DNA of 64,000 bases from an uncultured Verrucomicrobiales bacterium. Its GTDB lineage: Bacteria > Verrucomicrobiota > Verrucomicrobiia > JADLBR01 > JAIBCM01. The stretch spans positions 699 through 64,698 of the forward strand of contig CAYSZK010000001.1 in NCBI GenBank assembly GCA_964435495.1. Direction: 5' to 3'. Below, piece after piece: positions 6,559 to 52,331 of the stretch. Under the pieces are notes generated by a model. The model was not told where the DNA came from and searched no databases. It saw nothing but the letters and a program-made list of their open reading frames with translations. How positions within the stretch are numbered: position 1 is the stretch's first letter; each line of letters begins with the position of its first letter. The translations under genes and the position numbers were made by a program.

Positions 6559-6709
6559 GATGACGCCATCATATATCATTCATTGGAGTTGGCAAGTTCT
6601 GGCTCCCCAGGCAACCTTACGGCTTCGGGTTTCCGGCAGCTCAACAGAGGTTACGAGGTGTGGACCCATGAACCGCGGAGGACGGGGTGGGGGGAATGGG
6701 GCGAAAGCG

Positions 6710-6780
6710 TTGCCCGACATGGATTCGAACCATGACCAGAGGCTCCAAAGACCTCTGTGCTACCCTTACACCATCGGGCA
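6710..6780 (-). tRNA. tRNA-Gln (anticodon UUG)
   Basis: I folded it by hand: a 7-bp acceptor stem TGCCCGA/TCGGGCA, D-stem GTGT/GCAC, anticodon stem GAGGT/GCCTC with loop CTTTGGA (U33, anticodon TTG), T-stem CATGG/CCATG with the canonical TTCGAAT loop, and discriminator A. It has the U1:A72 pair seen in E. coli tRNA-Gln. Confidence 0.9.
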
Positions 6781-19584: not shown

Positions 19585-19595
19585 CGCGGCGGGGA

Positions 19596-32400: not shown

Positions 32401-34721
32401 GCCTGTTTGGCAGGCAGCGGGGATTCCATCTGCCGGCCATCGCGAATCCAACTGAACCGGCTGTACCCATTGTAATAATACTCCATCCGGTTGTTCTCCG
32501 GGGTTGTCACGGTGATGCGGTAGTTCTCCCACATGGCGGCGCCGGTGGCGGGGTAGTAGTTGGCGGCGCGCACGCCGTCGGTGGGTTCGGTGAGAAAACC
32601 GGTGGCGCCCATCGGGGTGGTGACGCGGTCGAGGAAAAGATTCCCGTTATTGGTGGTGTAGCCATAGGAGTAGGCGACGCCGCCCATGTCGGTTTGGTTG
32701 GTGAGGTTGCCGGAGGCGCTGTAAAGGAACGTGGCCTGGCGTCCAAAGGGATCGGCAATCGCCTGGATTTTTCCCTGGGCGTTATACGACACCGTGAAAT
32801 CGCGGTTGAGGGCGTCGGTGACTTTGAGAATCTGGCCCGCGGCGTCGTGGGTGACGCGCACGGTGTTGGTGTGGGGGTCGCGGATTTCCAGCAGCAGCGG
32901 CGTGGCGCCGCCGCCGCCCATGGCCGCCGGGATGCCGTAGGCGTAGATCATGCCCTCGGGAGTCTGGACTTGATAGGCGCTGGCGGCGGTCTTGCGCAGC
33001 GTCCACGCCCCGTGTTCGATGGGCGGGAGATAGCCGCCGACGCCGTCGGGGGTGTAAACGTCGCGGCGCCCGTCGGGCATGATGACGGTGACCTTGCCGT
33101 CCGGCCCAACCAGGGCGTAGGACGCGTAGTTCAGCGTCCATTTGTTGCCGACGGGCCGGGCTTGGTTGAGGGCGTCCTGGCTGTTGTAGGTGAGGTCGAA
33201 GGAAACCGCGGGGCCGAGCCCGGAGTTGTGCCACAGAGGCGTGTCCAACACGCAAAGGTTGAGATTCGCCGGATTGATGTCCCAAACGGGGAGGCCGGAA
33301 CCGGCGGGCAACCCGCCGCCGCCAGACTCGTCACGTTCGCCCTGGCATCGGCGTTTGTCGGAGCCCAGATCGTCCTCAGGGCGGGGAATGCCACAGCAGC
33401 CGCCGAGGACCTCGGTTTCGGAAGGTGTCGCGGCGGGAAACGCCCGCGCGGCGCCGGGATCGAAGACCACTGCCAAGCCGCTCCATTGGGAATCAAACTG
33501 CTCGAGCGTGAGGGTGACGGTTTGCTTGAGGCGGGGGTCGTAGATCGTGAGGAGAGCCGGGGCGGCGCCCGATTTTTCCAGACCGCTGACGACGACGAAG
33601 TGGAGGTCGCGGTAGTGGGCGATGAAAGGGCGGGGGAGACTGGCGATGCCGCCGGCGTCGGCCTGGACGGCGGCGGTCTCAAGGCCGTGACTTTCGGCAA
33701 ACCGCTGGAGTTGGCCGATGGTAAAACCCTCGTCGCCGGGGGCAGGGAGGCGGCGGACCTCGCGCGCCTCGCGGATGCGCCCGCGCAATTCAAGCACACG
33801 GGCGACGGCTTCGGCGCCGCAATCGCGCAGCTCGGCGAGGTGGCCTTGGAAATGGTTCAACTGGCGAATCCAGTTCTGGGCGTAGGTGCGGCGTTCCCAC
33901 TCCGTCTCCACGGCCAGCATATCGGCAAAAGCGGCGCGTGAATTGGCTATTTCGCCCCGTTCCATCAGGAGGACCGCGCGGCGGAGCCTGGCTTTCTGGC
34001 GCATGGCAAAAGCCGAGTCCTGGGCCGTCTCCGGAATGGCGGAAAGGATGGCGTTGAAGTGGCCCTCGGCTTCGTCCCAGCGCCCCGTGAATTGCGCCTC
34101 GCAACCCAGGTGCAGCCGCGCCTCACCGGCCCACGGACTGTCCGGGAACTCGCGCAAGTGCGCATGGAAGACCGGAACGGCCTCCGCATACCGGTGCGCA
34201 TTCCACAGATTCATCGCGCGGGCGAAGTGAAGATTCACCCGCTCCATCCGCGCGCGCTGTCCGGCATCCTTCAGCCGTAGCGGCTCGGCGGGCGCGGTGG
34301 GCGTCAACGGGCTGCCCAATTGTCCGGCCATTCGGAGTTCGCGTTCGGTGGGCACGCGGTCGAGGCGCAAATCGAGCAGGCTGATTGCGCCTTCCACGCC
34401 GCCATAGAGGCTGGCGCGCTGGCCGCGGCGTTCAGGCGGGTCGCGGCGTTCGAGGTCGCGGATGCGTTCTAGGGTGAGAGGCGGCTCGATCCTGGCGGTT
34501 GGCGCCTGCGGGGCGGGCTTCGAGCAAGCGGCCAGGAGCACGAACGCCATCCAGTGGAGATGCGGTCTGTGACAGCGTCGGACGCATTCCCGGTTCTGGG
34601 ATGCGTGGCTGGCATGGTTCGGGCGGTTTGTGGCGGATCGTCGGACGGCATGGCACACTTCCATGGAGAACGACCGGATGCGGTCACAAGCCGAATCGAC
34701 AGAATAGGGAGTCGGGATCAT
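29472..34721 (-). CDS. rhs: Rhs-family polymorphic toxin (TPR region, C39-peptidase-like domain, YD/RHS repeats, RHS core, variable C-terminal tip)
   Basis: It has many YD repeats and an Rhs core end (YTRDHLGSV…YSYDPWGRV…[34 protein letters not shown]). A papain-like Cys…His region ([12 protein letters not shown]…[13 protein letters not shown]) lies in the N-terminus. The ATG at 34721 overlaps the upstream gene's stop (ATGA). Confidence 0.9.
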
Positions 34722-37700
34722 GGCAGGGACTCCGCGTTGGCGGGGGTTTGAAGCTGGATCACAGGGGCCGACACATCACCGGGCACGAAACCGGGCGGTG
34801 CAGAACGGGCAGGGTCGAGAGGGAATGCGTCGAGCGCGTCGTTCACGCCGTCACCGTCTGAATCCGTGCGGAATGGGCTTGTTCCTTTGGCGGCCTCCTG
34901 GCTCAGGCTCAAGCCGTCGCCGTCCGGGTCGCCGCTGGCGGGATGCAGGCCCGCGGCCCACGCGGCGCCATCGAGGAGCCCGTCTCCGTTGGTGTCGGGA
35001 TTCTGAAAATCGCTGGGGGGCGAGAGTGTAAGCTCGGCGAAGTCGGAGAGGCCATCGCCATCGGTATCGCCGCCTGAATAGACAGTGACGGAGACGGGCG
35101 TGGACACGGTGGAGACACCGCGGTCGTCGGTGGCGACGGCCTTCAGGATGGCCGCGCCGAGCGGCGCGTTGGTCCATTGAAGGGTGTAGGGTGACGAGAT
35201 ATCCTCGCCGATCTTATTCGTGCCGGAAAAGAACTCGACCTTGGCGACGTAACCGTCGGGGTCTGAAGCGGTGGCGGCCAGCCAGAGCGTTCCGGTCGCA
35301 TCGGTGGCGGCGGCGCCGGCGGCAGGAGAGGTGATGGCCACCGTGGGCGGATAACTGAAGACGTTGAACCCGGTGATGCGCGTTGGGGTTAAACGGTTGT
35401 CGCTGTCGCCCAGGCCGAGGCGTCCGCTTCCCCCGGAGCCCCACGCCCACACAAAACCCGCCCCGTCGATGGCGAGGCTGTGATGGGCGCCCGCGGCGAT
35501 GGCGATGGCGTTGCTGAGCCCCGGCGCGGCGGCCTGGCGCGGTGTTTCCACATCGCCGCCAGTCGTGCCGTCGCCCACCGCCCCATACTCCCGGCGTCCC
35601 CACGCCCAGACCGTGCCGTCGCTTTTCAAGGCGAGCATGTGATCATTGCCCGCGGCGATGGCGGTAGCGTTGGAGATGCCGGCGACAACTGTGGGATTGC
35701 CATCAAATCCGTTGGTGATTCTGCCGAGCTGCCTGTCGCTGTTCTCGCCCCATGTCAGCACCCGTCCATCCGAACGCAGCGCCGCGGCAAACTGGTAACC
35801 AGCGGCGATTTCGATCATTGTGCCGCTCCCCGACCATGAAGTCAGGGCGTCATATATGGCGGTCGTGTCGTTCTTGACCTGGCGCATGCTGTTGTCGCCG
35901 GTGGCGCGCGGGTTGGGCGTGGTGACGGTTTCGGCGATGATATGGCTGTTGCGGCGTCCGGCGGCCACGCGAAGCGTTCCAACCGCCGAGAATGTGATTA
36001 AGCGCGGCTGATTTGTCCATGTGGACGCTCCGGAGTCCCCTTTCCCCAACTGGCCCCGTTCGTTGCCGCCCCATGTGTACAGCCTTCCGTTGGTTGTGAC
36101 ACACATGGAATGGTCCTCCCCGGCCGAGACCGCGGCGGCGTTGGGATGATGTTGACGGTGACCGGGCTCTGCTTGTCCTCGTCGTCCCCGTTTCCCAAAC
36201 GGCCTTCAGCGCCGGCGCCCCAGGCCCGCAGCCGCCCGTCGTGGCGCACCGCCAGGCAGTGGAGGGAACCCGCCGCCACCGACCGGACCAGGGAAATCCC
36301 CGAAACCTGCGCGGGACGGTTCGTAGAGCCCGCGTCCGAACCGTTCCCCATCTGGCCGGAGGAGTCTGAACCCCAGGTCCACACCGTTCCATCGTACATC
36401 AGCGCGATGGAATGCTCGTCGCCGCCGTCGATGCCGACGGCTCCGGTCTTGTCGTCGTCGGAAATGGTGTTGGTTGCCGTGCCGGGAGAACCGATGTTGT
36501 AGCCGGAACTGGTGGAGATCGCCACGGCGACGGTTTCATTGGTTTCAACCACGGTGTCATCGAGTACGGAGACCTGAAGATTCGTGAAACTTGCTCCGGC
36601 CGGGATCACCACGGGCGAGCTGATCGCGCGATAGTCGCCGCCGTTGCTGGCGGAGCCGCCGATGGAAAAGTTGACCGCCAACGGCCCGAACGTGTTGCCG
36701 GTGCGGGCAAAGGTGAACACTCCGGAATTGAATCCAGGCTCCGACGCCGATGGATCGGAGGCGGCCACCGTCACCGTGGGTTTGTTGCCGCTGGACTGCG
36801 CGAAAGCCTCAAAAATCACCGCCTGTCCGACCGCCTGGGTGCTCATCGCCAGGTCCACGGCCTGGGCGTAGATCGTTTGCAGCGCCCCGGTGGGGCACAT
36901 CTTGAGAAACACGGAAGCCTCGCCGTTGGCGGCCGTGCGGACCGTTCTGGAGGCCAGTTGCGAGCCGCTGCCCTTGTTCGTGGCGAACAACCCGCCAACG
37001 GGCGAGATCGAGAACGTAACCGGCGCGTTGGTGAGAACATTGCCCACGGCGTCGCGCACCAGCACCACGAGTGGATTGGCCGCGAAAGCGCCGGTGTTCG
37101 TGGTTTGGCGGTCTCCGCTGGCCAGCGACAGCAACGGGGCCTGGCCATTGAAAAAGTCGTTCGGCAGCGTGCCCGCTTGGAACTCCGCCAGGTTTGAGGC
37201 GCCGTCGCCATCGTAATCGCCGGCGGCCGGCTGGTTCGTGCCGCCAAGCCATTCGTATTCCCATGCGTCGTCCATGCCGTCGGCATCGGCATCGCCGCCC
37301 ACGATCGTCACGGAGACCGGAGTGGTGTTGGTGGTCGCGCCGCCGTTGTCGGTGGCGCGGGCGGTGAGGACATGGGCGCCGAAGCCGGCATTGGTCCACT
37401 CCACCGCGTACGGGGCGAGGCCGTCCTCGCCCAGCTTGTTGGTCCCCGCAAAAAACTCGACCTTTGCAACCGTCCCATCCGTGTCGGCGGCGGACGCGCG
37501 CAGCCAGACGCTGGCGGAATTTAGGACCACCGCGCCATCCATCGGGGCGTTCCAGGCCACCGATGGCGGGATGTTGCCGTCAATGAGCCCATGGCCCGCC
37601 ACGGCGGAAAAGGATGCCGCCTGTTCGGAAATGGGATCATCCCCAGCTCCAAACAACCCCGCAAGCGCCGTTTCGGGCAGAGCCACGTTCATCACGCCGC

Positions 37701-40756: not shown

Positions 40757-41758
40757 TCACGCGGTTCCCGTTAGGAACCAGGTTGCCATGGGGCCTTTGC
40801 CCTTGATCTCGATTTCGCCCCGGGGCTCGAACGTGAAGGCGCCGCCCAAGCGTTCCTTGACGGCGGCGCTCACATGGATTTTGCCGGGTTCGCCGTGGGA
40901 TTCCAAGCGGCTGGCGGTGTTTACGGTGTCACCCCAGATGTCGTAGATGAATTTGCGCTTGCCGATGACGCCGGCGACGACGGCGCCGGCGTGAAGGCCG
41001 ATGCGCAACTGGAGCGCTTGGCGCCCGCTGTCGGCGACCGCGGCCCGCATCTCCAGGGCGAGCCGGGCCATGGCGGCAAGGTTGTCCGGACGCGGATCGG
41101 GCAGGCCCCCGGCCACCATGTAGGCGTCGCCGATCGTCTTGATTTTCTCCAGGCCGTGTTTTTCGACGAGGTTGTCGAAGGCGGAGAACACGCGGTTGAG
41201 CATTTCGACGAGGCTGATGGCGTCGAGCTTCGCGGAGAGCGGCGTGAAATTGACGATGTCGGCGAACAGCACGGAGGCGTCTTCGAAACGTTCCGCGATG
41301 ATTCCGCCGCCGCGCTTGAGGCGGTCGGCGATGGGGGCGGGGAGGACGTTGAGGAGGAGGCGGGTGTTTTCCCGGTTGAGGCGGTCGAGGGCGAGATGGG
41401 TGTTGACGCGGGCTAGCAGCTCGTGGGCGTTGAACGGCTTGGCGACGTAATCCACGGCGCCCAGTTCGAAGCCTTTGACGATGTCGGCGGTCTCGGTCCT
41501 GGCGGTGAGGAAGATGACGGGGATGTCCCGCCAGCCGGGATGTTCCTTGAGGCGGCGGCAGGTTTCGAAGCCGTCCATTTCCGGCATCATCACGTCGAGA
41601 AGGATCAGGTCGGGGACCTGCCGGGCGAGGGCGTCGAGGGCGATCCTGCCGTTGGTGGCCACGCTGATCTGGTAGCCTTGCTCCTTGAGAATGGCGGTGA
41701 CCGCCTGGATGTTGGCCGGGGTGTCCTCGACCAGCAGGATGCGTCCTTCTTTGTTCAT
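40757..41758 (-). CDS. response regulator receiver fused to class III adenylate/guanylate cyclase domain
   Basis: ILLVEDT…DLILLDVMMPEMDG is a REC domain. FADIVNFT…GDAYMVAGG…YDIWGDTVNTASR is a CYC domain. The start overlaps the HK stop (ATGA). Confidence 0.85.
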   Translation of the reverse strand: MNKEGRILLVEDTPANIQAVTAILKEQGYQISVATNGRIALDALARQVPDLILLDVMMPEMDGFETCRRLKEHPGWRDIPVIFLTARTETADIVKGFELGAVDYVAKPFNAHELLARVNTHLALDRLNRENTRLLLNVLPAPIADRLKRGGGIIAERFEDASVLFADIVNFTPLSAKLDAISLVEMLNRVFSAFDNLVEKHGLEKIKTIGDAYMVAGGLPDPRPDNLAAMARLALEMRAAVADSGRQALQLRIGLHAGAVVAGVIGKRKFIYDIWGDTVNTASRLESHGEPGKIHVSAAVKERLGGAFTFEPRGEIEIKGKGPMATWFLTGTA

Positions 41759-44700
41759 GAAATTCCGTCCGTGGCGGAGGGGCATGCCTCGTCGAGCCGG
41801 CCCAGGGCGCCGTGGAAGTCGTAACCGCGCACGGCGGCGGCAACGGCATCGAACGCCGGGGCGGGCATGGCGGCGCGCAGGAGCGCCTCCGATTCGTCGA
41901 GCCAGTCCACCGAGGCCGCGTCGAAATCGGCGAGGCGGCGGCGAAGCTCGATGGCCGCGGCGCGGGCCTGGGCGGGGTCCACGGTGGCGGTTTCGGCGGG
42001 CGCGGGCATGGCGGGCGCGGCGGGCGCCGGTTCTTCGGGGAGACGCAAGAAAGCGCGCACTGCGGGGAGCAGGGCGTCGAGCGCGGCGGCGGTGGCGGCG
42101 TGAAGGCTCTGGATTTCGGCGGCCGGGGCTCGGGAACGGAGGGCGGCTTCGAGTTGGGCGGCGGCGGCATGCAAGGCTTTTGCGCCGAGATTGCCGGCGA
42201 CTCCCTTGAGGGCGTGCGTGGCGGCCTCGGCGGCGGGGAGGTCGCCGGAGGCGATGCTGGTCCCGATGCGGGCGGCGGTCCCGGCATTGTTCTCCGCGAA
42301 CTGGCGGAGCAACTTGTCGTAGAGCCTGGCGTTGCCGGCGACGCGCATGAGGCCGTCGGCGGTATCGAGGGTGGGGAGGGCTGGGGGCGGCGCGGGTTCA
42401 ACGGGGGAGGCCGGGGGGGCCGGAGGGGCGGGGAGTGGGGCGGTGTGGGTTGGGCGGAAATGCTTGGTGATGGTGGCGAACATCTGGACGGGGTCGATCG
42501 GCTTGGCGATGTGGTCGTTCATGCCGGCATCAATGCAGCGTTGCCGTTCCTCGTGCGTGGCGTGGGCGGTCATGGCGAGGATCGGCAGAGCCGCGAACTG
42601 GGGATCGGAGCGGATGAGCATGGTGGCCTGGTATCCGTCCATTTCGGGCATTTGCAGGTCCATGAGAACCAGATCGAACGCCGCGGGCGCGGCGGCGAGT
42701 TTTTCGACGGCATCGCGCCCGTTGTGGGCGAGGGAGACGGTGGCGCCGGCGCTTTCGAGGAGTTCCGTGGCGACCTGCTGGTTGATTTCGTTGTCTTCGG
42801 TGAGGAGGACGCGGGCGCCATCGATCCGGGCGGTGGCGTCGCGGGGCGCGGCCTGCGCGGCGGCGCCGGAGTCGGGTGCGAAGACGTTGACGAGCGTATC
42901 GACGAGCATGGACTTGGTGACGGGCTTGACGAGGAATCCGTCCACGCTCTCGGCCTCAGCCTCCTCGCGGACTTCCTCCCGGCCGAAGGCGGTGACGATG
43001 ACGAAGGCGGGCGGGTTGGGGATGGCGGGATCGTTCTTGATTTGGCGGATGGCCTGGATGCCGTCCATGCCGGGCATGCGCCAGTCCATGAAGACGATGT
43101 CGTAGGGGCTGGCGGCGGCGTGCTGGCGGACGGCGGCGATGGCTTCGAGGCCGGAGGCGACGGCATCGACGGCGGCGGCCATGGGGGCGAGGGCGTCGGC
43201 GAGGATTTCCCTGGCGGCGGCGTTGTCATCGACGACGAGGGCGCGGAAGGCGCGGAGGCCATCGGGGACGAGGCGCTGGGAGGAGCGTCCGGCGCCGATG
43301 CCGAGCCAGACGGTGAAATGGAACTGGCTGCCTTTGCCGGGCTGGCTTTCGAGCCAGATTTGGCCGCCCATGAGTTCGACGAGCCTGCGGCAGATGGTGA
43401 GGCCGAGGCCGGTGCCTCCGTGCTTGCGGGTGGTGGACATGTCGGCCTGGCTGAAAGGCTGGAACAGGCGGGCGGCTTGTTCCGGGGTCATGCCGATGCC
43501 CGTGTCGCGGACGGTGAACTGGAGTTTGGCCTTGTCGCCGGTGCGCTCGGCGACTTGGGCGGTGACCCGGACTTCGCCGGTTTCGGTGAACTTGACGGCA
43601 TTGGTGATGAGATTGGTGAGGATTTGGCCGAGGCGCAGGGGATCGCCGACCAGGTCCTGGGGGACATCGGCGGGGATATCGACTAGGAATTCGAGGCCTT
43701 TGTCGTGGGCCTTGCCGCCGGTGATGTTGACGGTGGAGGTGATGACATCGTCGAGGCGGAAGGTAGTGGATTCGATTTCGAGGCGGCCGGCCTCGACCTT
43801 GGAGAAATCGAGGATGTCGTTGATGATGGAAAGCAGGGAGGTGCCGGCGTTGTGGATTTTGGCGAGGTAATCGCGTTGTTTGGGTGTGAGGGCGGTTTTG
43901 AGGGCGAGGTGGGCGAGGCCGATGATGGCGTTCATCGGGGTGCGTATCTCGTGGCTCATGTTGGCGAGGAACATGGACTTCATCTGGGTGGCTTCCTCGG
44001 CCCTGGCCTTGGCCTCGATCATGGCCTCCTCCTGCCGGCGGCGCAGGGTGATGTCGGTGAAGCTGACGACCGCCCCCACGACGGCGCCGTCCTTGCGGAT
44101 CGGTGTGGCGCCGTATTCGACGGGAAGGGGCGAGCCGTCCTTGCGCCAGAGGCATTCGTCGTCCACAACGCGGGCCTCGCCGCGGGTGTAGGCGGCGTGC
44201 ATCGGGCATTCCTCGACCGGGTAGTCCGAGCCGTCGGGCCGGTGGTGGTGGATGAGGGCGTGGGACGGCTGGCCGATGAGATCGGCGGTGTCGAAGCCGA
44301 GCATTTTGCAGGCGGCCGGGTTGACGAAGGTGACGCAGCCTTTGACATCAACGCCGAAAATGCCCTCCGACGCCGACTGGAGGATCAGGCGGTTGCTTTC
44401 CTCGGCGGCGCGCAGCTCGGCGTTGCGGGCGGCGAACCGGAGGGCGTTGGCGACGGCCTCGGCGGCCTTGTCCAACCATTTGGATTGGATTTCCGAGAGC
44501 GGCTTGAAGAGGGCGAATTCGGCGGCGCCGACGAGATCGTCATCGGCGAGGAGGGGTTGGGCGACGATCTCGGCGGGGGCGACTTCGCCAAACCCGAAAT
44601 GGACGCGCAACGAGGAGGCGTCGGGGCCATGGACCAGGCGCTGGCGGGAGCGGGCGGCCTCGCCCACGGTGCCGACTCCGGGGGGATAGGCATGGCCCGC

Positions 44701-46278
44701 CGCGGCGTCCGGGTAGGCGTGGGCGGCGAGGCGGTGGAGGTTGCCGTCATCGGCGAGGGTGAAGATGGCGCCGGCCGGGGCTTCGAGGAACCGGATCATG
44801 ACGCCGAGGGCGCGCTGGGCGAGATCGGCGGTGGACAGGCAGCCGCGGAGGCTGGAGTTGAGCTCGGAGAGGCTGGATTCAAGGGCGGCCTGCTGGCGGG
44901 CTTGGCAGGCCTGGGTTTCCAGGGCGTCCTCGGCGGCCTGGCGGCGTTCGGCCATGAGATTGATGGCGTCGGAGAGGGAATCCTCGCTGCCGCGGCGGGG
45001 CACGCGGCGGCTGAAATCGCCTCCGGCGATGGAGGCGCAGACCGAGGCAACGTGGCGGTAGGAATCGACGACGCGGTTGAAGCTGCGGAACATCGCGCCG
45101 ATCTCGTCTTTCATTCGTCCGGGATCGGGGAGGTCCTGGCCGAGATTGCCGGAGGCGACGCGATCGGCGGCGTGCAGGGCGAGGCCGATGCGGCGGGAGG
45201 CGGAGGAGGAGAAGGCCCATGCGAGCGCGAGCGCGAGGCCGAGGGCGGAAAAGGCGATGGTCGAGGCCAGGAAGCCATGGCGCTTGATGGGGCCGAGGAC
45301 GGCGGCCTCCGGGAACTTGACGAGGACCATCCATTCCCCCGTGGGAACGGGGGCGGAGGCGAAGTAGCAGGGTTGTCCATCCACGGGATCAACGGCGGCG
45401 GTAAACCGCGCTTCCTGGCGGTTGGCGTGGAAGGCGGAGGCGATCTCCTTGTAAGGGGTGTCCTTGATCTCCTTGGTCCGGTAATGCACGGCAAGCGTGG
45501 AGGCGATGAACCGTCCCCGGCTGCTGATGAGGATGACGCCGACGCCGGTGTCTTTCTGGATGGACAGGAGGGATTCGGCGATGTCTTCGAGGGCGCGGTC
45601 CACTCCGGCGACGCCCGCGAAACGCCCGTCGCGGACGATGGGAAAGGTTTGTTCGACAATCATTTTGCCCTCGTACACGTAGGGCTCCGTCACCATGGGA
45701 ACGGGTTTGCCCTCGGCCAGGAAGCGGTCTTTGCAGCCCTGATAGTACAGGCTTTTTTCCATGTCGATCAGGGGGGTGAGCGAGATGGCGCCCGCCGCCT
45801 TGTTGTCGCGGAACCAGTAGGGGATGAACCGGCCTTCGGGACCAAAGGCGTTGCCGAGGGCGGCGGCATCGGGCGTGCCGGCGTAGGCGGCGTCCTGGCC
45901 GTCGGCGCCGGGTTCGTAGCCGAAATAGGCGCCTGTGAATTCGGGCGATTCTTCGAGAATCCGGCGGGCGTAGCGGAGGGAGGCGCCGCGGTTGCCGAAA
46001 AGGCCCTCCTCCTGAGCGAGGGCCATGATGCGGGCGGTTTGGACGGCCCGCTGGTTGCTTTCATCGATTTGGACGGCGATGGTTCGGGCGCGGGCGCGGA
46101 GGAGGTCCTCGGCCTGGGCGCGCATGGCTTTCTGGGTGCGCGAGGAAAGGAAGAGCAGGACGGCGGTGAGGACGGCCATGGCGGGGAGCATGACCCAGAG
46201 CATGAGGCGCCCACGCAGGCTGTGGCGGAAGGCGACGCGGGTGGGCGCGGTTGCGGGGGTTGGAGTTTGATCCGCCAT
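41755..46278 (-). CDS. hybrid sensor histidine kinase (periplasmic sensor, HAMP, GAF/PAS, HisKA-HATPase, two REC, HPt)
   Basis: An N-terminal TM helix and a Cache-like region are followed by HEIRTPMN (H-box), N/G boxes, two DxxxD…D…K receiver blocks and a C-terminal HPt (HALKG). Confidence 0.9.
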   Translation of the reverse strand: MADQTPTPATAPTRVAFRHSLRGRLMLWVMLPAMAVLTAVLLFLSSRTQKAMRAQAEDLLRARARTIAVQIDESNQRAVQTARIMALAQEEGLFGNRGASLRYARRILEESPEFTGAYFGYEPGADGQDAAYAGTPDAAALGNAFGPEGRFIPYWFRDNKAAGAISLTPLIDMEKSLYYQGCKDRFLAEGKPVPMVTEPYVYEGKMIVEQTFPIVRDGRFAGVAGVDRALEDIAESLLSIQKDTGVGVILISSRGRFIASTLAVHYRTKEIKDTPYKEIASAFHANRQEARFTAAVDPVDGQPCYFASAPVPTGEWMVLVKFPEAAVLGPIKRHGFLASTIAFSALGLALALAWAFSSSASRRIGLALHAADRVASGNLGQDLPDPGRMKDEIGAMFRSFNRVVDSYRHVASVCASIAGGDFSRRVPRRGSEDSLSDAINLMAERRQAAEDALETQACQARQQAALESSLSELNSSLRGCLSTADLAQRALGVMIRFLEAPAGAIFTLADDGNLHRLAAHAYPDAAAGHAYPPGVGTVGEAARSRQRLVHGPDASSLRVHFGFGEVAPAEIVAQPLLADDDLVGAAEFALFKPLSEIQSKWLDKAAEAVANALRFAARNAELRAAEESNRLILQSASEGIFGVDVKGCVTFVNPAACKMLGFDTADLIGQPSHALIHHHRPDGSDYPVEECPMHAAYTRGEARVVDDECLWRKDGSPLPVEYGATPIRKDGAVVGAVVSFTDITLRRRQEEAMIEAKARAEEATQMKSMFLANMSHEIRTPMNAIIGLAHLALKTALTPKQRDYLAKIHNAGTSLLSIINDILDFSKVEAGRLEIESTTFRLDDVITSTVNITGGKAHDKGLEFLVDIPADVPQDLVGDPLRLGQILTNLITNAVKFTETGEVRVTAQVAERTGDKAKLQFTVRDTGIGMTPEQAARLFQPFSQADMSTTRKHGGTGLGLTICRRLVELMGGQIWLESQPGKGSQFHFTVWLGIGAGRSSQRLVPDGLRAFRALVVDDNAAAREILADALAPMAAAVDAVASGLEAIAAVRQHAAASPYDIVFMDWRMPGMDGIQAIRQIKNDPAIPNPPAFVIVTAFGREEVREEAEAESVDGFLVKPVTKSMLVDTLVNVFAPDSGAAAQAAPRDATARIDGARVLLTEDNEINQQVATELLESAGATVSLAHNGRDAVEKLAAAPAAFDLVLMDLQMPEMDGYQATMLIRSDPQFAALPILAMTAHATHEERQRCIDAGMNDHIAKPIDPVQMFATITKHFRPTHTAPLPAPPAPPASPVEPAPPPALPTLDTADGLMRVAGNARLYDKLLRQFAENNAGTAARIGTSIASGDLPAAEAATHALKGVAGNLGAKALHAAAAQLEAALRSRAPAAEIQSLHAATAAALDALLPAVRAFLRLPEEPAPAAPAMPAPAETATVDPAQARAAAIELRRRLADFDAASVDWLDESEALLRAAMPAPAFDAVAAAVRGYDFHGALGRLDEACPSATDGIS

Positions 46279-46427
46279 GGGAGATATTTTGGCCGGGGCT
46301 TTGGAGAGGGGAGCGTAGGGGATGGAGCGGGGGATTGTCGATGGCGAACCGCTCGCACGCGGGGTTCAGCGCGTGAGAAGGGGTCTGAAGAGGGTTCGGG
46401 AAAAGGCGAAAAGGGGTCAGGGCGCAC

Positions 46428-46491
46428 AAATCAAGGGCCTTGCGCGAGCGCGGAGCGCTTCTTGCCAATCCAGCGGCTCAACCCGGGGGGC
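46428..46491. repeat. ~64-bp imperfect direct repeat, copy A (upstream of vapB-2)
   Basis: aatcaagggccttgcgcgagcgcggagcgcttcttgccaatccagcggctcaacccggggggcag differs by ~5 mismatches/1 indel from the copy at 47351..47414. Confidence 0.7.
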
Positions 46492-46581
46492 AGCAGTGAC
46501 GAGGGCCAATCCCCCAATCGACATGATCCGGGCGGTCCGACTGCGGGGGGGAACGGATTGACGGAAAGCCGTAAAGCCGGT

Positions 46582-46824
46582 ATGGATTTCCATATGAAGG
46601 TGAAAACGACACTCAACATTAGCGGCGCGACGATGCGGGAAGTCAAGCGTGAGGCCGCGCGGCGCCGGCAGACCATGTCCGAACTGGTCGAGGCCGCGCT
46701 GCGGATCGTTGTGGAACCGCAACAGCACGGCACGGTGCTGCCGCCCCTGCCGGAGTTCCGCGGCGGCGGGCTGCGCGTCGATGTGGCCAACCGCGACGCG
46801 CTATACAATGTAATGGAGCGGTAG
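46582..46824 (+). CDS. vapB: VapB-family antitoxin (Rv0623/PSK-like)
   Basis: MKVKTTLNISGATMREVKREAARRRQTMSELVEAALR is a classic VapB N-terminus. Its stop is 2 nt before the PIN gene start. Confidence 0.65.
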   Translation: MDFHMKVKTTLNISGATMREVKREAARRRQTMSELVEAALRIVVEPQQHGTVLPPLPEFRGGGLRVDVANRDALYNVMER

Positions 46825-46826
46825 CC

Positions 46827-47309
46827 GTGTTCGTTGTGGACACCAACATCCTGATCTACGGGTCTGACAAGGACTCGCCCGATCACAAGCGATGCCGGGG
46901 ATTGTTGGAATCGTGGAGGACGCAGCCGACGCCATGGTATGTGACATGGGGCATTGTCTATGAATTCCTCCGGGTGGTTACCCATCCCCGTGTTCTTACC
47001 CGCCCTTTTACGCCGGAGGAGGCATGGATGTTTTTAAACGCCCTGTTTGCCTCCCCGCGTCTTGGCGTGCTCGCCGAGACGGACCGGCACCGGCATGTCG
47101 CCGCGGAAGTGTTTTCCGAAGTGCCCGGCATTTCAGGCAATCTGGTGTTTGACGCGCATACCGCAATCCTGATGAGAGAAAACGGCATCCGGACGATTTA
47201 CACACGGGATTCAGATTTCAATCGGTTTCCGTTCCTGGATACGATCGATCCGATTACGGACAACCGACGAACCGGCAAATCCCGCGTACGCGGCAAACCG
47301 CGCCGCTGA
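46827..47309 (+). CDS. vapC: PIN-domain toxin VapC
   Basis: VFVVDTNILIY…LVFDAHTAILMRENGIRTIYTRDSDFNRF shows the PIN D…E…D…D pattern. It has a GTG start. Confidence 0.8.
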   Translation: MFVVDTNILIYGSDKDSPDHKRCRGLLESWRTQPTPWYVTWGIVYEFLRVVTHPRVLTRPFTPEEAWMFLNALFASPRLGVLAETDRHRHVAAEVFSEVPGISGNLVFDAHTAILMRENGIRTIYTRDSDFNRFPFLDTIDPITDNRRTGKSRVRGKPRR

Positions 47310-47350
47310 TTAGCGGCCCGCCGCGCAGCATGAAGGGGCCGGGGAGCATC

Positions 47351-47414
47351 AATCAAGGGCCTCGCGCGAGCGCGGAGCGTTTTTGCCAATCCAGCGGCTC
47401 AATCCGGGGGGCAG
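47351..47414. repeat. ~64-bp imperfect direct repeat, copy B (downstream of vapC-2)
   Basis: See copy A. Together the two copies bracket the ~860-bp vapBC module. Confidence 0.7.
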
Positions 47415-47437
47415 GTCTCCTTTCCCAAAGGGACGCT

Positions 47438-48136
47438 TCAAGGCAGAAGCAGGAGATAGCTTTGGGCGGCGAGGAGGGTGGTCAGGTGGAAGAACAGGGC
47501 TTCTTCCAGGGGGAGAATGCCGAAGAGACGGATGCCGAGAGTTTGGGAATCGTCGAAGAACCAGACGCCCGCGGCGATGGCGGCGGTGTCGAAGGCGCAG
47601 AGGATGAAACCCAGACCGAAGGTAACGGCAAGGACAGGGACGGGCATGCCGATCCAGACGCCACCGGCGCACCACTGGAGCGCGATGACGGGGAGCATCC
47701 AGACCAGAAGATGGCGAAGGTAGGCCAGGCGCGGCGGAAGGGGCAGGCGGAGGATAACCCACCCTGCGGGGATTGAAGCGGCGAGGGTCCAGGCGGCGGC
47801 AGTCCAGTCGGGCGGAAGTTTCATGGGGATGGGATGGCCGTGGAGCTTCCAAATGGTGACGTGCATGAGGAGGCAGGCCTGGACGGTCTGGATGACGAAA
47901 AAGGCGTATTCTTCCACGGGGCATTTGCCGATGCGGAAGCGGATGCGGTTGTCGGGGAAATCCCAGATGCCGCGGGCAACGGCCCAGTTATCCCAAGGGG
48001 TGGTGAAGGCGACGGCGAGGAGAACGACGCCGGCGGTGACGGCGGTGTCGGTCCAGGTCCAGGTGAAGGAGGCGGCGCCGGCGAGGAGGAGCAGCAGGGG
48101 CGCGTTGAATCGCCAATGGAAGGATTCGTAGGTCAT
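47438..48136 (-). CDS. lycopene cyclase domain-containing membrane protein (CrtYcd-type)
   Basis: It is polytopic, with lycopene-cyclase-domain motifs (…PVEEYAFFVIQT…, repeated half-domains). Confidence 0.65.
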   Translation of the reverse strand: MTYESFHWRFNAPLLLLLAGAASFTWTWTDTAVTAGVVLLAVAFTTPWDNWAVARGIWDFPDNRIRFRIGKCPVEEYAFFVIQTVQACLLMHVTIWKLHGHPIPMKLPPDWTAAAWTLAASIPAGWVILRLPLPPRLAYLRHLLVWMLPVIALQWCAGGVWIGMPVPVLAVTFGLGFILCAFDTAAIAAGVWFFDDSQTLGIRLFGILPLEEALFFHLTTLLAAQSYLLLLP

Positions 48137-48159
48137 GATGCCGGGGCGCCGCGCGGGGG

Positions 48160-48633
48160 TCAGCGCGAGATGTCGTGTTGGGTGAGGATTTCATAACCCG
48201 CGGCGCGGAGGACGGTGCGCGCGCAGTCGCGGTCTTCGACATGAAGGACGAGGCAGGGGCGTCCGCGCGGGCGGGTGAGGAGCGGGTACATGAAAAGGAT
48301 GTTGCACTCGCCCTGGAAGAGGGCGGCGAGGAGGCCGCGGAGTTCGGCGGCCTCGGCCATTTCGGCGACGAGGACGTGGGTTTCGGTGAAGGCATGGGCG
48401 TGTTCGTGGAGGATGTGGCGGGTGCGGTCCGGGTCGCTGACGAGGATGCGTTCGATGCCGCAATCGGAAGTGTCGAGGACGGAGACGGCGACGATCTGGA
48501 TGCCGGCGGTTTCCAGCATGCGGGTGAGGTCAAGGAGGCGTCCGACCTTGTTTTCGAGGAAGACGGAGAATTGGATGGTGCGTTCGGGTTCGCGCGCGCG
48601 TTGCGTTTCGGCCTGCACGCCCCCAGCTTGCAT
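48160..48633 (-). CDS. ACT domain-containing protein
   Basis: Two beta-alpha-beta-beta-alpha-beta ACT-like halves are present (FSVFLENKVGRLLDLTRMLETAGIQIV…). Confidence 0.55.
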   Translation of the reverse strand: MQAGGVQAETQRAREPERTIQFSVFLENKVGRLLDLTRMLETAGIQIVAVSVLDTSDCGIERILVSDPDRTRHILHEHAHAFTETHVLVAEMAEAAELRGLLAALFQGECNILFMYPLLTRPRGRPCLVLHVEDRDCARTVLRAAGYEILTQHDISR

Positions 48634-48683
48634 GAAGGCGCGGAAAAATCGAGCCTTTCAAGAAACTCGCATGGGCGCCGGGA

Positions 48684-48986
48684 TCAGGCGGGTTTTGGGG
48701 CGACGGACTCGAGGGTGGAAGCGAGGCGCGCGGAGATGATGCGGGAGATATTGAGCAGGACCTGGGAGACAAGGTAGGGGGAGAAGCGGCGGAGGGAAAG
48801 GAGGGAATCGTAGTCGAGGCTGAGGAGGCGGGCCTGGGTGCGCGCGACGACGTCGGCGGTGCGGGGGCGTTGGGAGACGAACGCCATTTCGCCGAAGATG
48901 TCGCCCAAGCCCAGGGTGGCGACGGTCTTGCGCGCATCGCCGGCGCCGACGGCGACTTCGAGGCCGCCGGAAAGGACGACGTACAT
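48684..48986 (-). CDS. cyclic-nucleotide-binding domain, C-terminal half (continuation of the upstream MMPL ORF across an in-frame TAA)
   Basis: YVVLSGGLEV…GDIFGEMAF…RTADVVA are the cNMP phosphate-binding-cassette motifs. It is in the same frame as 48999..51404. Confidence 0.6.
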   Translation of the reverse strand: MYVVLSGGLEVAVGAGDARKTVATLGLGDIFGEMAFVSQRPRTADVVARTQARLLSLDYDSLLSLRRFSPYLVSQVLLNISRIISARLASTLESVAPKPA

Positions 48987-48998
48987 GCGCGCGCCGGG

Positions 48999-51404
48999 TT
49001 ACCCGGGGGGGACGACGAGGGAGCCCGGGGGATGCTCTTCGATGTCGGAGGCGAGGATGATTTTGCGTGCCTGCCATGGGGTCAGCCCCTCGAAGAACGG
49101 GGATTTGGCGAGCAGGGCGGTGCGGAGGTGGAGGCCGACGATGTCCCAGAGCGTGACGACGCGGGTGTGGCCGAAGAAGAGGGGGGTGACAAGCATTTCG
49201 GTGGCGAGCGCGACGAGCATGACGCCGGCGCTGAGGAGGCCGAATTCGCGGACGGGCTGGAAACTGGAGAGGCCGAGGACGGCGAAACCGGCGCCGAGGG
49301 CGAGGGATGTGGCGGTGATGGGGACCAGCTCGTCGCGGATGGCGGTGCGCATCCCGGCGCGTTCGTCCTTGAGGCGGCGGGCCTCGCGGTTGAAATGGAC
49401 GAGCAGGTGCATCGTGTCGTCCACGGCGATGCCCAGCGTGATGGCGGCGACCATGCAGGTGCCGACGTTGAGGGTGATGCCGGCGGCGCCCATGGCGCCG
49501 AAGATGGCGAGGACGGGGAGCATGTTTGCGACGACCGTGAGCGCTCCGCAACGCCAGGAAAGGAAAAGGACCCCGACGATGAGAAAAAGCGAGAGCATCA
49601 TGCCGCCGAGGGAAAGGGTCTGCGCCCAGGTGATCGAGTCGGCGCCGCCGGCGAACAGGAGGGCGCGCCCGCCAAGGCTGTACACTACCGGGCCGAATAG
49701 TTGGGCGTCGAGGGCGGCGCGGATGCGGGCGGCGAGGGCGCTGATTTCGCGGCTTTGGTCGAGGTGGCAACGGATCACGAGATTGGCGCGGGCGAGGTCC
49801 GGGGTGAGCAGGCTCTTGTATTCGGCGGGGTGGGCGAAGAGGAGAAGCTGGCGGACGGCGGCGGCGGTGGCGGGGACGGTCTGGTGGACGGGATCGCCGT
49901 CGTGGATCTGGCCGTTGATGCGGGCGAGGAGCCCGGCGGCGGACATGACGCTGTCCACGCCTTCCTGTTTGCGGAGGAAATCGGCGATGGCGGCCACCTG
50001 GCGGAGGGCTTGGGGATCGGCGAAGGCGCCTGGGGCGGCGTGGAGGGTGAGGTTGAGGACTTGGAGGCCTGGGAGGCGGGCGGTGAGGCGGTTGTTGTTG
50101 AGGATGACGGGGGAGTCCGTGCGGAAGAAGGCGCGGAAGTTGTTGCTGACCTCGATGCGGACGGCGAGGAAAATGGATGCGGCGGCGAGGAGGGCGAGCC
50201 CGGCGAGGACGGCGCGAGTGTGGCGGAACAGGAGCCGGTCCAGCCAGGCGACGATCCGGTCGGGCCAGGTGCGGCGGGAGGGGGCGCGGTTGCCGTGGAG
50301 GAGCGGGGCGGCGAAGCGGAAGCAGGCGGGGAGGAAGAGGATGGAGACCAGGAACCGGGCGGTCATGGCGAGCGCGGCGGCGATGCCAAACTCGCGGAGG
50401 ATGGGGACATTGCTGGTGGCGGTGGAGGCGAACCCGAGGATGGTGGTGCCGGAGGTGAGGGCGAGGGCGAGGCTGATGCGGCGGGCGGCGTGTTCGACGG
50501 CCTGGCGCGGGGACGCGCCCGTTTGGAGGTGTTCCCGGAACTCGTGGATGATGTGGATGTCGCTGGTGGCGCCGATGACGAGGACGAGGGCGGGCAGGAT
50601 GTAGTTGAGGGGGTTGACAGGCAGGCCGATGGCCGCCATGGCTGCGCCGGTCCAGAGGACGGCGATGGCGGCGTTGAGGATCGGGAAAACCGCGGCGGGC
50701 AGGCTGCGCAGAGTAAAGATCAGGAGGGCGAAAAGGACACCGAGAGACAGGGGGAGCAGCACGGCCTGGTCGCGGACCAACTGGCGGCGCAGCCAAGTCT
50801 CGGACGCCGGCGCGCCCGCGTAGAAAAGCGCGGCGAAATCGCCGGTGAACTCCGCAAGGACATGCTCGACCGCGGCCGTGACCCGTTCGGCGGGAGGCGC
50901 ATCCGGGCCGTCGGGGAGGTGAAGGAGGAAGAGCGTGGCTTCGCCGTCCTGGGAGACCACCTGGCCGGTGAGGAGCGGGTTGGCGATGACGCGGGCGCGG
51001 AGGGCGGCGGCGGCTTCGGGGGTGGCGGGTGGGGAGGCGATGGCGGGGCCGGTTTCCAGGATGCCGTTTTCGTTGCGGATATCGGAGAGGTTGAAGAGGC
51101 TTTCGACGCGGGAGAAGACGGGAAGGGCGGCGAGGCGGTCGTGAAGGGCGCGCAGGCGCGCGAGGCGTGCGGGGGAGAAGAGAGCGGCATCTTCCGCATA
51201 GACGGCGGAGGGTTCGCCGCCGCCGAAGTGGCTGCGCAGCGTGTTCCATTCGTCGCGTTCGCGGCTGGCGGCGGGGATGAGCGCATCGCCGGAGACTTCG
51301 ACGCGGACCTGGCGGGCGACGGGAAGGGCGAGGACCGTGGCGAGGATTACGGCCAGGGCGATCCAGCGGGCCTGGTCAAACGCGAAAAGGGGAATCCGCC
51401 ACAC
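48999..51404 (-). CDS. MMPL/RND-superfamily transporter with the start of a C-terminal cNMP-binding domain
   Basis: It has 12 predicted TM helices in two 6-TM bundles with periplasmic loops. The C-terminal …FFEGLTPWQARKIILASDIEEHPPGSLVV is the N-terminal half of a cNMP-binding domain. Confidence 0.75.
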   Translation of the reverse strand: MWRIPLFAFDQARWIALAVILATVLALPVARQVRVEVSGDALIPAASRERDEWNTLRSHFGGGEPSAVYAEDAALFSPARLARLRALHDRLAALPVFSRVESLFNLSDIRNENGILETGPAIASPPATPEAAAALRARVIANPLLTGQVVSQDGEATLFLLHLPDGPDAPPAERVTAAVEHVLAEFTGDFAALFYAGAPASETWLRRQLVRDQAVLLPLSLGVLFALLIFTLRSLPAAVFPILNAAIAVLWTGAAMAAIGLPVNPLNYILPALVLVIGATSDIHIIHEFREHLQTGASPRQAVEHAARRISLALALTSGTTILGFASTATSNVPILREFGIAAALAMTARFLVSILFLPACFRFAAPLLHGNRAPSRRTWPDRIVAWLDRLLFRHTRAVLAGLALLAAASIFLAVRIEVSNNFRAFFRTDSPVILNNNRLTARLPGLQVLNLTLHAAPGAFADPQALRQVAAIADFLRKQEGVDSVMSAAGLLARINGQIHDGDPVHQTVPATAAAVRQLLLFAHPAEYKSLLTPDLARANLVIRCHLDQSREISALAARIRAALDAQLFGPVVYSLGGRALLFAGGADSITWAQTLSLGGMMLSLFLIVGVLFLSWRCGALTVVANMLPVLAIFGAMGAAGITLNVGTCMVAAITLGIAVDDTMHLLVHFNREARRLKDERAGMRTAIRDELVPITATSLALGAGFAVLGLSSFQPVREFGLLSAGVMLVALATEMLVTPLFFGHTRVVTLWDIVGLHLRTALLAKSPFFEGLTPWQARKIILASDIEEHPPGSLVVPPG

Positions 51405-51434: not shown

Positions 51435-52331
51435 TCATTCGAGCGTGACGGTCATGCCAAACTGAAAGATGAACTCCTCGACATCCTCCGGCTTCCATTT
51501 TTCCTGGAAATCCGTGGAGAAGAGATGGTCTTCAAATTTTTCATTGAGGCGCCCTTCGACGACAAGAAACTCGGTGAAACTGCCGCGGGCGAAATCCTTC
51601 ATGATGGCGGATTTGGGGCGGGTGGTCTTGCCCTTGACGTCGGGGGAGCGGTAGCCGGAGGCTTCGAGGGCCTTGATTTTCCCGCCGTTGGGGCCGTAGA
51701 ACTCGGCCTTGAGCAGGTCGAACGTCTCCTGGTCAAGGAACAGGTCGCGATGGGCGTAGGCGCTGGATTTGGAGGCGCGGGACTCAATGGCGCGGACGAC
51801 GTAACATTTGCGGTTGTCCACCACGGCGTCTTCGAGGCGTTCGTAGGTGTGGGCGGAAGGCATCTCCTCCAGGAGGTCTTCGTAGGTGAAATCGGAGCCG
51901 AGGAAGGCGGAGGAGCGGGCGCCCCCGGCGAGATCCTTGGATTTCCCGACGGCGGGGAGGAAGAAAAACTGTTTGAGGCCGGCCACCGGGTCGTTGACGG
52001 CGAGGACGGTGACGCCTTCGACGTCCTTGGGGCGAACCATGCGCAGGAAGTAGGATTGGCCGCCGCTGGGATTGGTGCGATAGACGACGAGGAATCGATG
52101 TTCCTTTTCGGGGGCGCCGGGCACGCTGGTGGTCATTTTGATGAAGGCCATTTCCGAATCGCTCTTCTTTGTGGCGATCCAGCGCTCGATGATCTCGTTG
52201 GCCGGCGGCGTGGCGGCGGGGGCGTCCACGGCGTTCGCGCGCGGCACGGGGACGGCGCCGAGGGCTCCGGCTGCGAAGGTGATGGCGGCAAGGGCCGCAC
52301 TGCGTGAAGGATTCCACTCCCGAGGCTTCAT
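51435..52331 (-). CDS. outer-membrane lipoprotein-sorting (LolA-like) fold protein
   Basis: It has a signal peptide and is immediately upstream of and co-directional with the MMPL transporter. The family call is by pattern only. Confidence 0.5.
   Translation of the reverse strand: MKPREWNPSRSAALAAITFAAGALGAVPVPRANAVDAPAATPPANEIIERWIATKKSDSEMAFIKMTTSVPGAPEKEHRFLVVYRTNPSGGQSYFLRMVRPKDVEGVTVLAVNDPVAGLKQFFFLPAVGKSKDLAGGARSSAFLGSDFTYEDLLEEMPSAHTYERLEDAVVDNRKCYVVRAIESRASKSSAYAHRDLFLDQETFDLLKAEFYGPNGGKIKALEASGYRSPDVKGKTTRPKSAIMKDFARGSFTEFLVVEGRLNEKFEDHLFSTDFQEKWKPEDVEEFIFQFGMTVTLE

Follow-up and report, generated by a model that had tools for sequence, protein, structure and literature searches.

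The mycobacterial transporters MmpL3, MmpL4 and MmpL5 and HpnN of Burkholderia are resistance-nodulation-division (RND) proteins with 12 transmembrane helices (TM1 to TM12) and two periplasmic domains, and they handle hydrophobic cargo; none has a cyclic-nucleotide-binding (CNB) domain, and they work with MmpS or AcpM instead of a LolA-like partner. An RND/MMPL core paired with, or fused to, a PF17131 (LolA-like) domain is known from Treponema pallidum (TP0790 with the TP_0789-like family) and from Thalassolituus oleivorans (TOL_3187; PMC8407342, PMC6304351), and also occurs in the protein P0020. TOL_3187, an MMPL + LolA-like fusion, is up 42-fold on the n-C28 alkane (PMC6304351), which points to a very hydrophobic cargo. 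No CNB domain is described for TP0790 or TOL_3187, both of which are likened to the locus treated here by description, not by sequence. CNB domains placed C-terminally to a membrane transport core, as in this locus, are found in the channels SthK and MloK1 and in major facilitator superfamily fusions (MFS-CNBD), and the CNB domains of PKA-R and PKG belong to the same comparison; there, the transport core is a channel or an MFS protein, whereas here it is of the RND type. A 2023 review on transporter regulation mentions the MFS-CNBD fusions and does not list an RND-CNB case (PMC10710835), and no description of an RND/MMPL transporter paired with a CNB domain was found in the literature searched. 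The fusion analyzed here lies in a stretch of 64,000 nt from an uncultured Verrucomicrobiales bacterium (contig CAYSZK010000001.1 of assembly GCA_964435495.1, positions 699 to 64,698; "the window"), where a single in-frame TAA codon interrupts the gene within its CNB part. The locus belongs to a widespread module of two genes, LolA-like plus RND-CNB, of which it is an ordinary representative, and the TAA is most likely not part of the design of this module.

The transporter open reading frame (ORF 1; Table 1) starts with GTG at position 51404 and ends with GTC GTC CCC CCC GGG TAA. The same frame then continues with CCC GGC GCG CGC ATG TAC GTC GTC and stays open for 104 codons up to a TGA at 48684..48686 (ORF 2), exactly as the original prediction had it: an 801-aa transporter ending at TAA, followed in frame by the second half of a cyclic nucleoside monophosphate (cNMP)-binding domain. 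Across the interruption, the window contains CCCCCGGGTAACCCGGCG; the seven-nucleotide G run said to adjoin the stop is present (49005..49011 on the plus strand, C7 on the coding strand). When the stop is replaced by Glu, the conceptual fused product has 906 aa, in which Pfam recognizes MMPL (PF03176; 92.8 bits, cutoff 20.5) in two stretches covering both transporter halves, along with Patched/sterol-sensing and ACR_tran. The single cNMP_binding match (PF00027) reaches 61.9 bits (cutoff 27.5), a score valid for the conceptual read-through translation only; it covers residues 790-871 and straddles position 802, which bears out the claim that the transporter tail is the first half of this domain. 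A hidden Markov model of the CNB domain built from the family aligns with its positions 2-36 to the end of ORF 1 and with positions 40-131 to ORF 2, and has no other match in the window. On sequence grounds, transporter and CNB domain thus constitute one RND/MMPL-CNB gene, not two, because the orthologues are fused in 79 of 84 loci. A hairpin resembling a terminator, with a T-run, is placed after the full fused frame and not after the TAA.

Intact orthologues include P0001 (905 aa, 57% identity), P0002 (partial, 67%), proteins of Prosthecobacter, Brevifollis, Cerasicoccus maritimus, Desulfospira joergensenii, Solimonas, Stenotrophobium and Salinisphaera, and others from Opitutales metagenome-assembled genomes (MAGs). 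They share with the window protein the domain order, the length, the LolA-like gene upstream and the motifs GIAVDDTxH, TLWD and FGE...RTA; all are encoded in a single uninterrupted ORF, whereas the window gene is split by TAA. In the protein search, homologues with both MMPL and cNMP_binding were 905-928 aa long and 27-57% identical (one, truncated by its contig, 67%), and those of full length align straight through the stop position. An experimental study of any intact RND-CNB orthologue was not found in the literature searched.

Codon 802 sits in a G-[ED]-x-G motif. In the corresponding alignment column of 148 relatives, Glu is present in 60, Asp in 47 and different sense residues in the others, while a stop occurs in none; the closest full-length orthologue (L083) reads GGG GAA ACC GGC where the window reads GGG TAA CCC GGC. 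The TAA therefore does occupy, as proposed, a D/E consensus site one substitution away from GAA. Judged from sequence, the downstream codons are not decayed: GC content at third codon positions is 0.88 after the stop versus 0.89 upstream of it, and identity to homologues is 62-68% in the post-stop part versus 56-67% in the transporter body. The anomaly is not confined to the stop. The family consensus across the surrounding patch is V-[RK]-[QE]-G-[ED]-x-G, and three of four successive codons of the window deviate from it. Pro799 and Pro800 take the place of R/K and Q/E, and Pro is found at these positions in only 1 and 2 of 149 relatives, respectively. Residues that are rare in the family occur at 7 of 864 comparable positions of the window protein, and P799-P800 is the sole adjacent pair among them (0.057 pairs expected).

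Several origins for the patch were considered and rejected. If a frameshift at C7 had been compensated, another frame should fit better, but the +1 and +2 readings (SSPPGNPARA and RPPRVTRRAH) match the consensus worse than frame 0; the lesion is thus a substitution, not an indel. Phase variation by run length is discounted, as C6 or C8 would put the CNB domain out of frame and neither rescues the gene. An origin by quasi-palindrome or template switching was unconvincing, since the arms around the TAA, compared by eye, match over 5 bp only. Nor do other genes point to a poor assembly overall: no other broken gene was found among 18 further ORFs of the window, 13 of which have normal Pfam matches and 5 no match. 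As a separate observation, TCCCCCGGG (Pro-Pro-Gly) occurs twice within 30 nt (window 49002-49034, minus strand; HPPGS and VPPG*), and its second copy is part of a hairpin of 5 bp, CCGGG-TAA-CCCGG, whose loop is the TAA. Repeat and hairpin may have a bearing on the origin of the patch or on poor sequencing through it.

Separate assemblies of the same strain were available as Logan contigs, identified by exact look-up of the LolA-like and ACT proteins in the runs SRR10095373 and SRR10095374. Over the 20.8 kb fetched in total, the four contigs match the window with 100.000% identity. In SRR10095373, one contig spans 56609..49010 and the next 48991..43160; in SRR10095374, the right-hand contig begins at 48989 (contig boundaries: L085, 49010; L087, 48991; L088, 48989). 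The stretch assembled by neither run is 48992..49009, which falls within the region flagged earlier for inspection of reads (48990-49010). The last bases of the left-hand contig, GTC GTC C, reach up to the first base of codon 799, and a consensus Arg codon (CGN) at 799 would differ from the window at the very next base. Three other G7 runs, at 46545, 53693 and 55900, lie unbroken inside contigs, so the homopolymer alone does not explain the gap. As the contigs are 3.7-7.6 kb long, a boundary would fall within a few bases of the stop by chance in about one in a few hundred cases per run, and it is seen in both runs. Thus, three oddities coincide in the same 18 nt: the stop codon, the pair of rare prolines and the lack of assembled sequence.

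Both runs are metagenomes of 19°C "Cool" sediment (∼5 Gb each) from a study of the Liard River thermal swamp, in which nine libraries were co-assembled with MEGAHIT (meta-large) and binned with MetaBAT2 (PMC8027834). Given its identity to these runs, the window most likely stems from sediment metagenomes co-assembled by MEGAHIT at low coverage. In JGI metagenomes, two scans with DNA patterns, one of which allowed a gap of variable length across the patch, detected no contig of the same strain or with an alternative allele. Exact look-up of the 801-, 798-, 101- and 100-aa products retrieved none on record, although neighboring genes of the same 130,967-nt NCBI contig are; this pattern fits a pseudogene call by the annotator.

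The reading best supported by these data, to which we assign a probability of roughly 55%, is a local defect of the MAG consensus at the patch, due either to an artefact of assembly or sequencing or to population heterogeneity at this site, of which the consensus shows one allele. The stop is less likely to be a fixed feature because the patch departs from the family consensus and because the per-run assemblies cannot cross it. Several points weigh against this view. The evidence comes from assembled contigs, not from reads. By default, MEGAHIT keeps only k-mers seen at least twice, so at least some reads in the pooled libraries must have supported the TAA path. The clustering of the substitutions is unlike random Illumina error, which suggests a better fit to a real complex mutation, and the per-run breaks could be a coverage dropout caused by the real sequence itself (the G7 run together with the GC-rich hairpin). 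The right-hand contigs start 2 nt apart in the two runs, which resembles a ragged dropout more than a clean variant bubble. Finally, the assignment of the window to the MEGAHIT MAGs of that study goes by run identity (PMC8027834). Whether flaw in a MAG consensus or young lesion, the stop advises caution against reading biology into single in-frame stops from low-coverage co-assemblies.

As the principal rival reading, it is possible, albeit in our estimate short of probable, that the TAA is real and fixed: a recent complex multi-nucleotide mutation would have converted R/K-Q/E-G-E into P-P-G-stop, leaving an 801-aa transporter with an intact 12-TM core and no working CNB domain. Regulation would then be lost, and the 104 downstream codons would be a young pseudogene remnant. 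That the TAA path was assembled at all, so that some reads carry TAA, is in keeping with this scenario, and so is the existence of natural CNB-less relatives of 750-810 aa, according to which a transporter without the domain is viable. The undecayed state of the downstream codons fits a very recent event, and the missing records for both ORF products, next to recorded neighbors on the same NCBI contig, fit a gene called as pseudogene. However, a fixed mutation requires a separate reason why two per-run assemblies fail at the same 18-nt patch while passing other G7 runs, and the JGI scans brought up no close relative that shows the allele in a second population.

A functional interruption, in which TAA is read through or recoded to yield the 906-aa protein, or in which translation terminates and reinitiates at the ATG of ORF 2 so that the two CNB halves reassemble, is very improbable, despite the fact that frame, codon bias and all ligand-binding residues are kept past the stop. 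The ATG in question (48986) lies 12 nt, or four codons, past the stop and is the conserved Met of the MYVV motif, but no Shine-Dalgarno sequence was found for ORF 2, and the split would fall inside the β-barrel, in the turn between β2 and β3. The stop is followed by C, which in E. coli is a weak termination context; UAA, on the other hand, is recognized by both release factors and leaks less than the other stop codons. Neither a stop nor a split at this position exists in any relative, so the interruption is no conserved device. RNA folding around the stop is unremarkable (z-score 0.04; only the 5-bp hairpin), an Rfam element at the site is absent, and the sole tRNA of the window, tRNA-Gln(TTG), is no suppressor. 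The other window genes tested contain no in-frame TAA. The recoding signals that the original prediction had suggested looking for thus found no support. Reassignment of TAA was rejected as well: the other confident ORFs of the window are free of in-frame TAA and all end with TGA or TAG. Least of all do the ORFs represent separate genes, one for a transporter and one for a small cNMP-binding protein of its own. ORF 2 does begin with an ATG, and small stand-alone CNB proteins exist (a 118-aa gene in L081), but ORF 2 is devoid of the N-terminal helix and β1-β2, and this reading is refuted by the domain match that spans both ORFs and by the fused state of the orthologues.

To describe the protein as it would be without the stop, the TM topology was read from an AlphaFold2 model of the orthologue P0001 (mean pLDDT, the predicted local distance difference test score, 84.2; pTM, the predicted template modeling score, 0.72), to which the window protein aligns without gaps. 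The model consists of TM1, a periplasmic domain, TM2-6, TM7, a second periplasmic domain and TM8-12, which end near residue 747; 12 TMs with large periplasmic domains after TM1 and TM7 are therefore present, as in other RND transporters of this type. TM12 is followed by three short helices, the eight-stranded β-barrel of the CNB domain (790-866) and C-terminal helices; a short conserved linker, TLWD, lies between TM12 and the CNB domain. Foldseek with this model retrieved MmpL4/5, MmpL3, HpnN, NPC1 and Patched (E 1.6e-26 to ∼1e-19), with TM-scores of 0.64-0.80 to MmpL4/5; for MmpL3/4/5 and HpnN together, TM-scores were 0.6-0.8, but identity was only 14-16%. A profile search of the PDB bore out the relation of the core to these RND proteins and, for the tail, matched the CNB domains of PKG and PKA-R (E 1e-37 to 1e-25) and SthK (1e-18); it matched no solved chain containing both an RND core and a CNB domain.

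D663, T664 and H666 are invariant in the family and D662 is at least 90% conserved; these residues and the G278/H284 motif are retained in the window protein. Such Asp-Asp-Thr-x-His and G...H motifs are typical of proton-coupled RND transporters, and we infer that they are placed in TM4 and TM10 and have a role in proton coupling. The phosphate-binding cassette of the CNB domain, G-E-x-A...R-[ST]-A, is present as FGEMAFVSQRPRTADV. Within the family, G838, E839 and A850 do not vary, and R848 and T849 are conserved to at least 90%; all five residues of this canonical binding cassette are kept in the window. Among the NCBIfam models, HAE3 (TIGR00921) matched best, with 144.5 bits over both transporter halves, which is below the curated cutoff of 351.9 and does not make the protein a member. 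The HpnN models also missed their cutoffs (TIGR03480, 63.5 versus 751.85 bits, and NF052374, 35.3 versus 1100 bits), and the actII model scored far under its own. Because HAE3 and HpnN scores stay below the cutoffs, the protein is classified from sequence as an MmpL/HpnN-like RND transporter outside the named subfamilies.

The fusion was thought to be unusual, which did not hold: it belongs to a large family spread over several phyla. A scan with one genome per species found relatives in at least 580 stretches, the best 80 of which came from Verrucomicrobiota, Nitrospirota, Desulfobacterota, Myxococcota, Spirochaetota, Elusimicrobiota and Gammaproteobacteria (Solimonas, Stenotrophobium, Salinisphaera and Spectribacter). 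Intact RND-CNB proteins of 900-930 aa were found across Verrucomicrobiota, Nitrospirota, Desulfobacterota, Myxococcota and Gammaproteobacteria. The 84 loci referred to above are the first 84 fetched; in the 79, one uninterrupted ORF encodes both transporter and CNB domain, and in the 5 exceptions either a contig edge intervenes or that ORF has no CNB match. The MMPL-cNMP fusions that were to be sought in relatives are thus plentiful, and separate genes for the two parts are not what the orthologues show. When P0001 was compared with 1.84 billion representatives, 4529 matched at E ≤ 1e-30; among the 150 best representatives (at the 50% identity level), most align to it end to end, CNB domain included. 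In ∼20 relatives, the match begins near the N-terminus but does not reach the CNB domain; several of these proteins are complete at 750-810 aa, which means that CNB-less versions exist naturally. In P0159 (1228 aa) and P0189 (1208 aa), the core aligns only to about residue 750 and is followed by ∼460 further residues, probably a C-terminal cytoplasmic domain of another kind that replaces the CNB domain. The fusion is hence real but not novel, and the family is widespread in databases yet uncharacterized.

The second component of the module is encoded 30 nt upstream of the transporter gene on the same strand. This LolA-like protein (113.8 bits, Pfam cutoff 30) has an N-terminal segment resembling a signal peptide and no lipobox Cys. 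A LolA-like homologue directly upstream and on the same strand is present in at least 51 of the 74 loci with enough upstream sequence. The other neighbors in the window (ACT, lycopene-cyclase-domain and TPR proteins and a 184-aa ORF) had no tblastn match in other loci.

If the module were intact, a proton-driven RND core would probably extract its cargo, a lipid or hydrophobic molecule, from the inner membrane and hand it over to the LolA-like carrier, as argued by the similarity in fold to MmpL4/5/3 and HpnN, the Asp-Asp-Thr-x-His motif and the LolA-like partner. Binding of cAMP or cGMP to the cytoplasmic CNB domain after TM12 would tune or switch transport, probably in that the C-helices move upon cNMP binding and, via the linker, displace the TM bundle at its cytoplasmic ends. 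The ligand may be supplied locally by a receiver-cyclase protein, which is encoded together with a co-directional hybrid histidine kinase ∼7 kb from the transporter. The original prediction had placed a receiver-adenylate cyclase and a giant hybrid kinase 8 kb away; both genes were confirmed, and only the distance had to be corrected. The local cyclic-nucleotide theme that it had seen in them is plausible, as cyclases recur beside the operon in other lineages, although a functional link is not proven by this. A class III cyclase domain lies within ∼6 kb in ∼17 of 84 other loci, a count that overstates the independent cases since many of these lineages are related. In Stenotrophobium rhamnosiphilum (L060:1688-8589), a 1069-aa protein with a zinc ribbon, a class III cyclase domain, an AAA_16/STAND ATPase and TPR is followed by the LolA-like and the RND-CNB gene. 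The same three-gene layout is found in L039, L040, L046, L057, L067, L071 and L074, and a cyclase occupies the equivalent position in loci of Solimonas, Nevskiaceae, Salinisphaera and Spectribacter. In Nevskiales-type Gammaproteobacteria, the 1069-aa protein looks like a dedicated cyclase for the transporter. Taken together, a functional link between cyclase and module is supported, not proven.

In its boldest form, the idea would be that LolA-like plus RND-CNB is an unstudied export module for envelope lipids or hydrophobes, gated by a second messenger and wired to its own class III cyclase in several lineages, and that the TAA allele is a natural knock-out of the regulatory domain segregating in the sediment population; we consider this combination unlikely. 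The family in itself, a lipid-type RND transporter with a canonical cNMP sensor, a LolA-like partner in the periplasm and, in some lineages, a neighboring cyclase, would connect cAMP/cGMP signaling directly and post-translationally to envelope lipid traffic, and the occurrence of RND-CNB genes in cultured strains (Cerasicoccus maritimus, Desulfospira joergensenii, Solimonas, Stenotrophobium rhamnosiphilum and Salinisphaera) makes this testable. The stop itself is of low interest; the uncharacterized family is moderately interesting. A further observation concerns the closest relative (67% identity; L081:173-6467 and L082, from JGI 3300037308 and 3300037307), in which three genes with CNB domains lie within 6 kb: in L081, the genes after RND-CNB encode a glutaminase-CNB fusion of 614 aa, a Na/H exchanger with TrkA_N and the 118-aa stand-alone CNB protein.

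Table 1. Location of the interrupted gene, its surroundings and other features in the window.
Feature	Position	Strand	Remarks
tRNA-Gln (anticodon TTG)	6709-6780	minus	Only RNA gene in the window by Rfam and ARAGORN
PSD/DUF1592-family protein, with adjoining DUF1552/HXXSHH protein	17089-21089	minus	831 aa (PSD/DUF1592 protein)
1749-aa ORF, then 462-aa protein	29472-36106	minus	
Receiver + class III adenylate/guanylate cyclase	40757..41785	minus	342 aa; Guanylate_cyc 208 bits, Response_reg 114.8 bits
Hybrid histidine kinase	41755..46278	minus	1507 aa; dCache/HAMP/GAF/PAS/HisKA/HATPase/2xREC/Hpt; immediately upstream of cyclase
PIN-domain ORF	46827-47309	plus	160 aa
Two-lycopene-cyclase-domain protein	47438-48136	minus	TIGR03462, 113 bits
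ACT_8 domain-pair protein	48160-48633	minus	
Terminator-like hairpin + T-run	48650..48669	minus	15 nt past TGA of ORF 2; weak, as such sites occur at chance level in the region
ORF 2	48684..48998	minus	104 codons + TGA; predicted remainder of CNB domain: β3-β8, phosphate-binding cassette FGEMAF...RTADV, C-helices
Anomalous 18-nt patch	48992..49009	minus	Coding strand CCCCC GGG TAA CCC GGC G; Pro799-Pro800 + stop + 5-bp hairpin
In-frame TAA (codon 802)	48999..49001	minus	β2-β3 turn of CNB domain
ORF 1	48999..51404	minus	801 codons + TAA; predicted 12-TM MmpL/HpnN-like RND core, linker helices after TM12, start of CNB domain (N-terminal helix, β1, β2)
LolA-like protein (PF17131, TP_0789-like)	51435..52331	minus	298 aa

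Directly downstream of the transporter gene, the ACT_8 domain-pair protein and the protein with two lycopene cyclase domains are encoded, both as neighbors that are not conserved. The PIN-domain ORF, which is also called in Logan contig L087, lies on the opposite strand within an array of minus-strand genes. Farther away, the PSD/DUF1592-family protein (PSD2-5, PSCyt3 and a weak cytochrome c match) adjoins a DUF1552/HXXSHH protein, a pair typical of Planctomycetes and Verrucomicrobia and in keeping with the Verrucomicrobiota as the source of the window. The 1749-aa ORF is followed by a protein with RCC1 repeats, Big_7 and TSP3.

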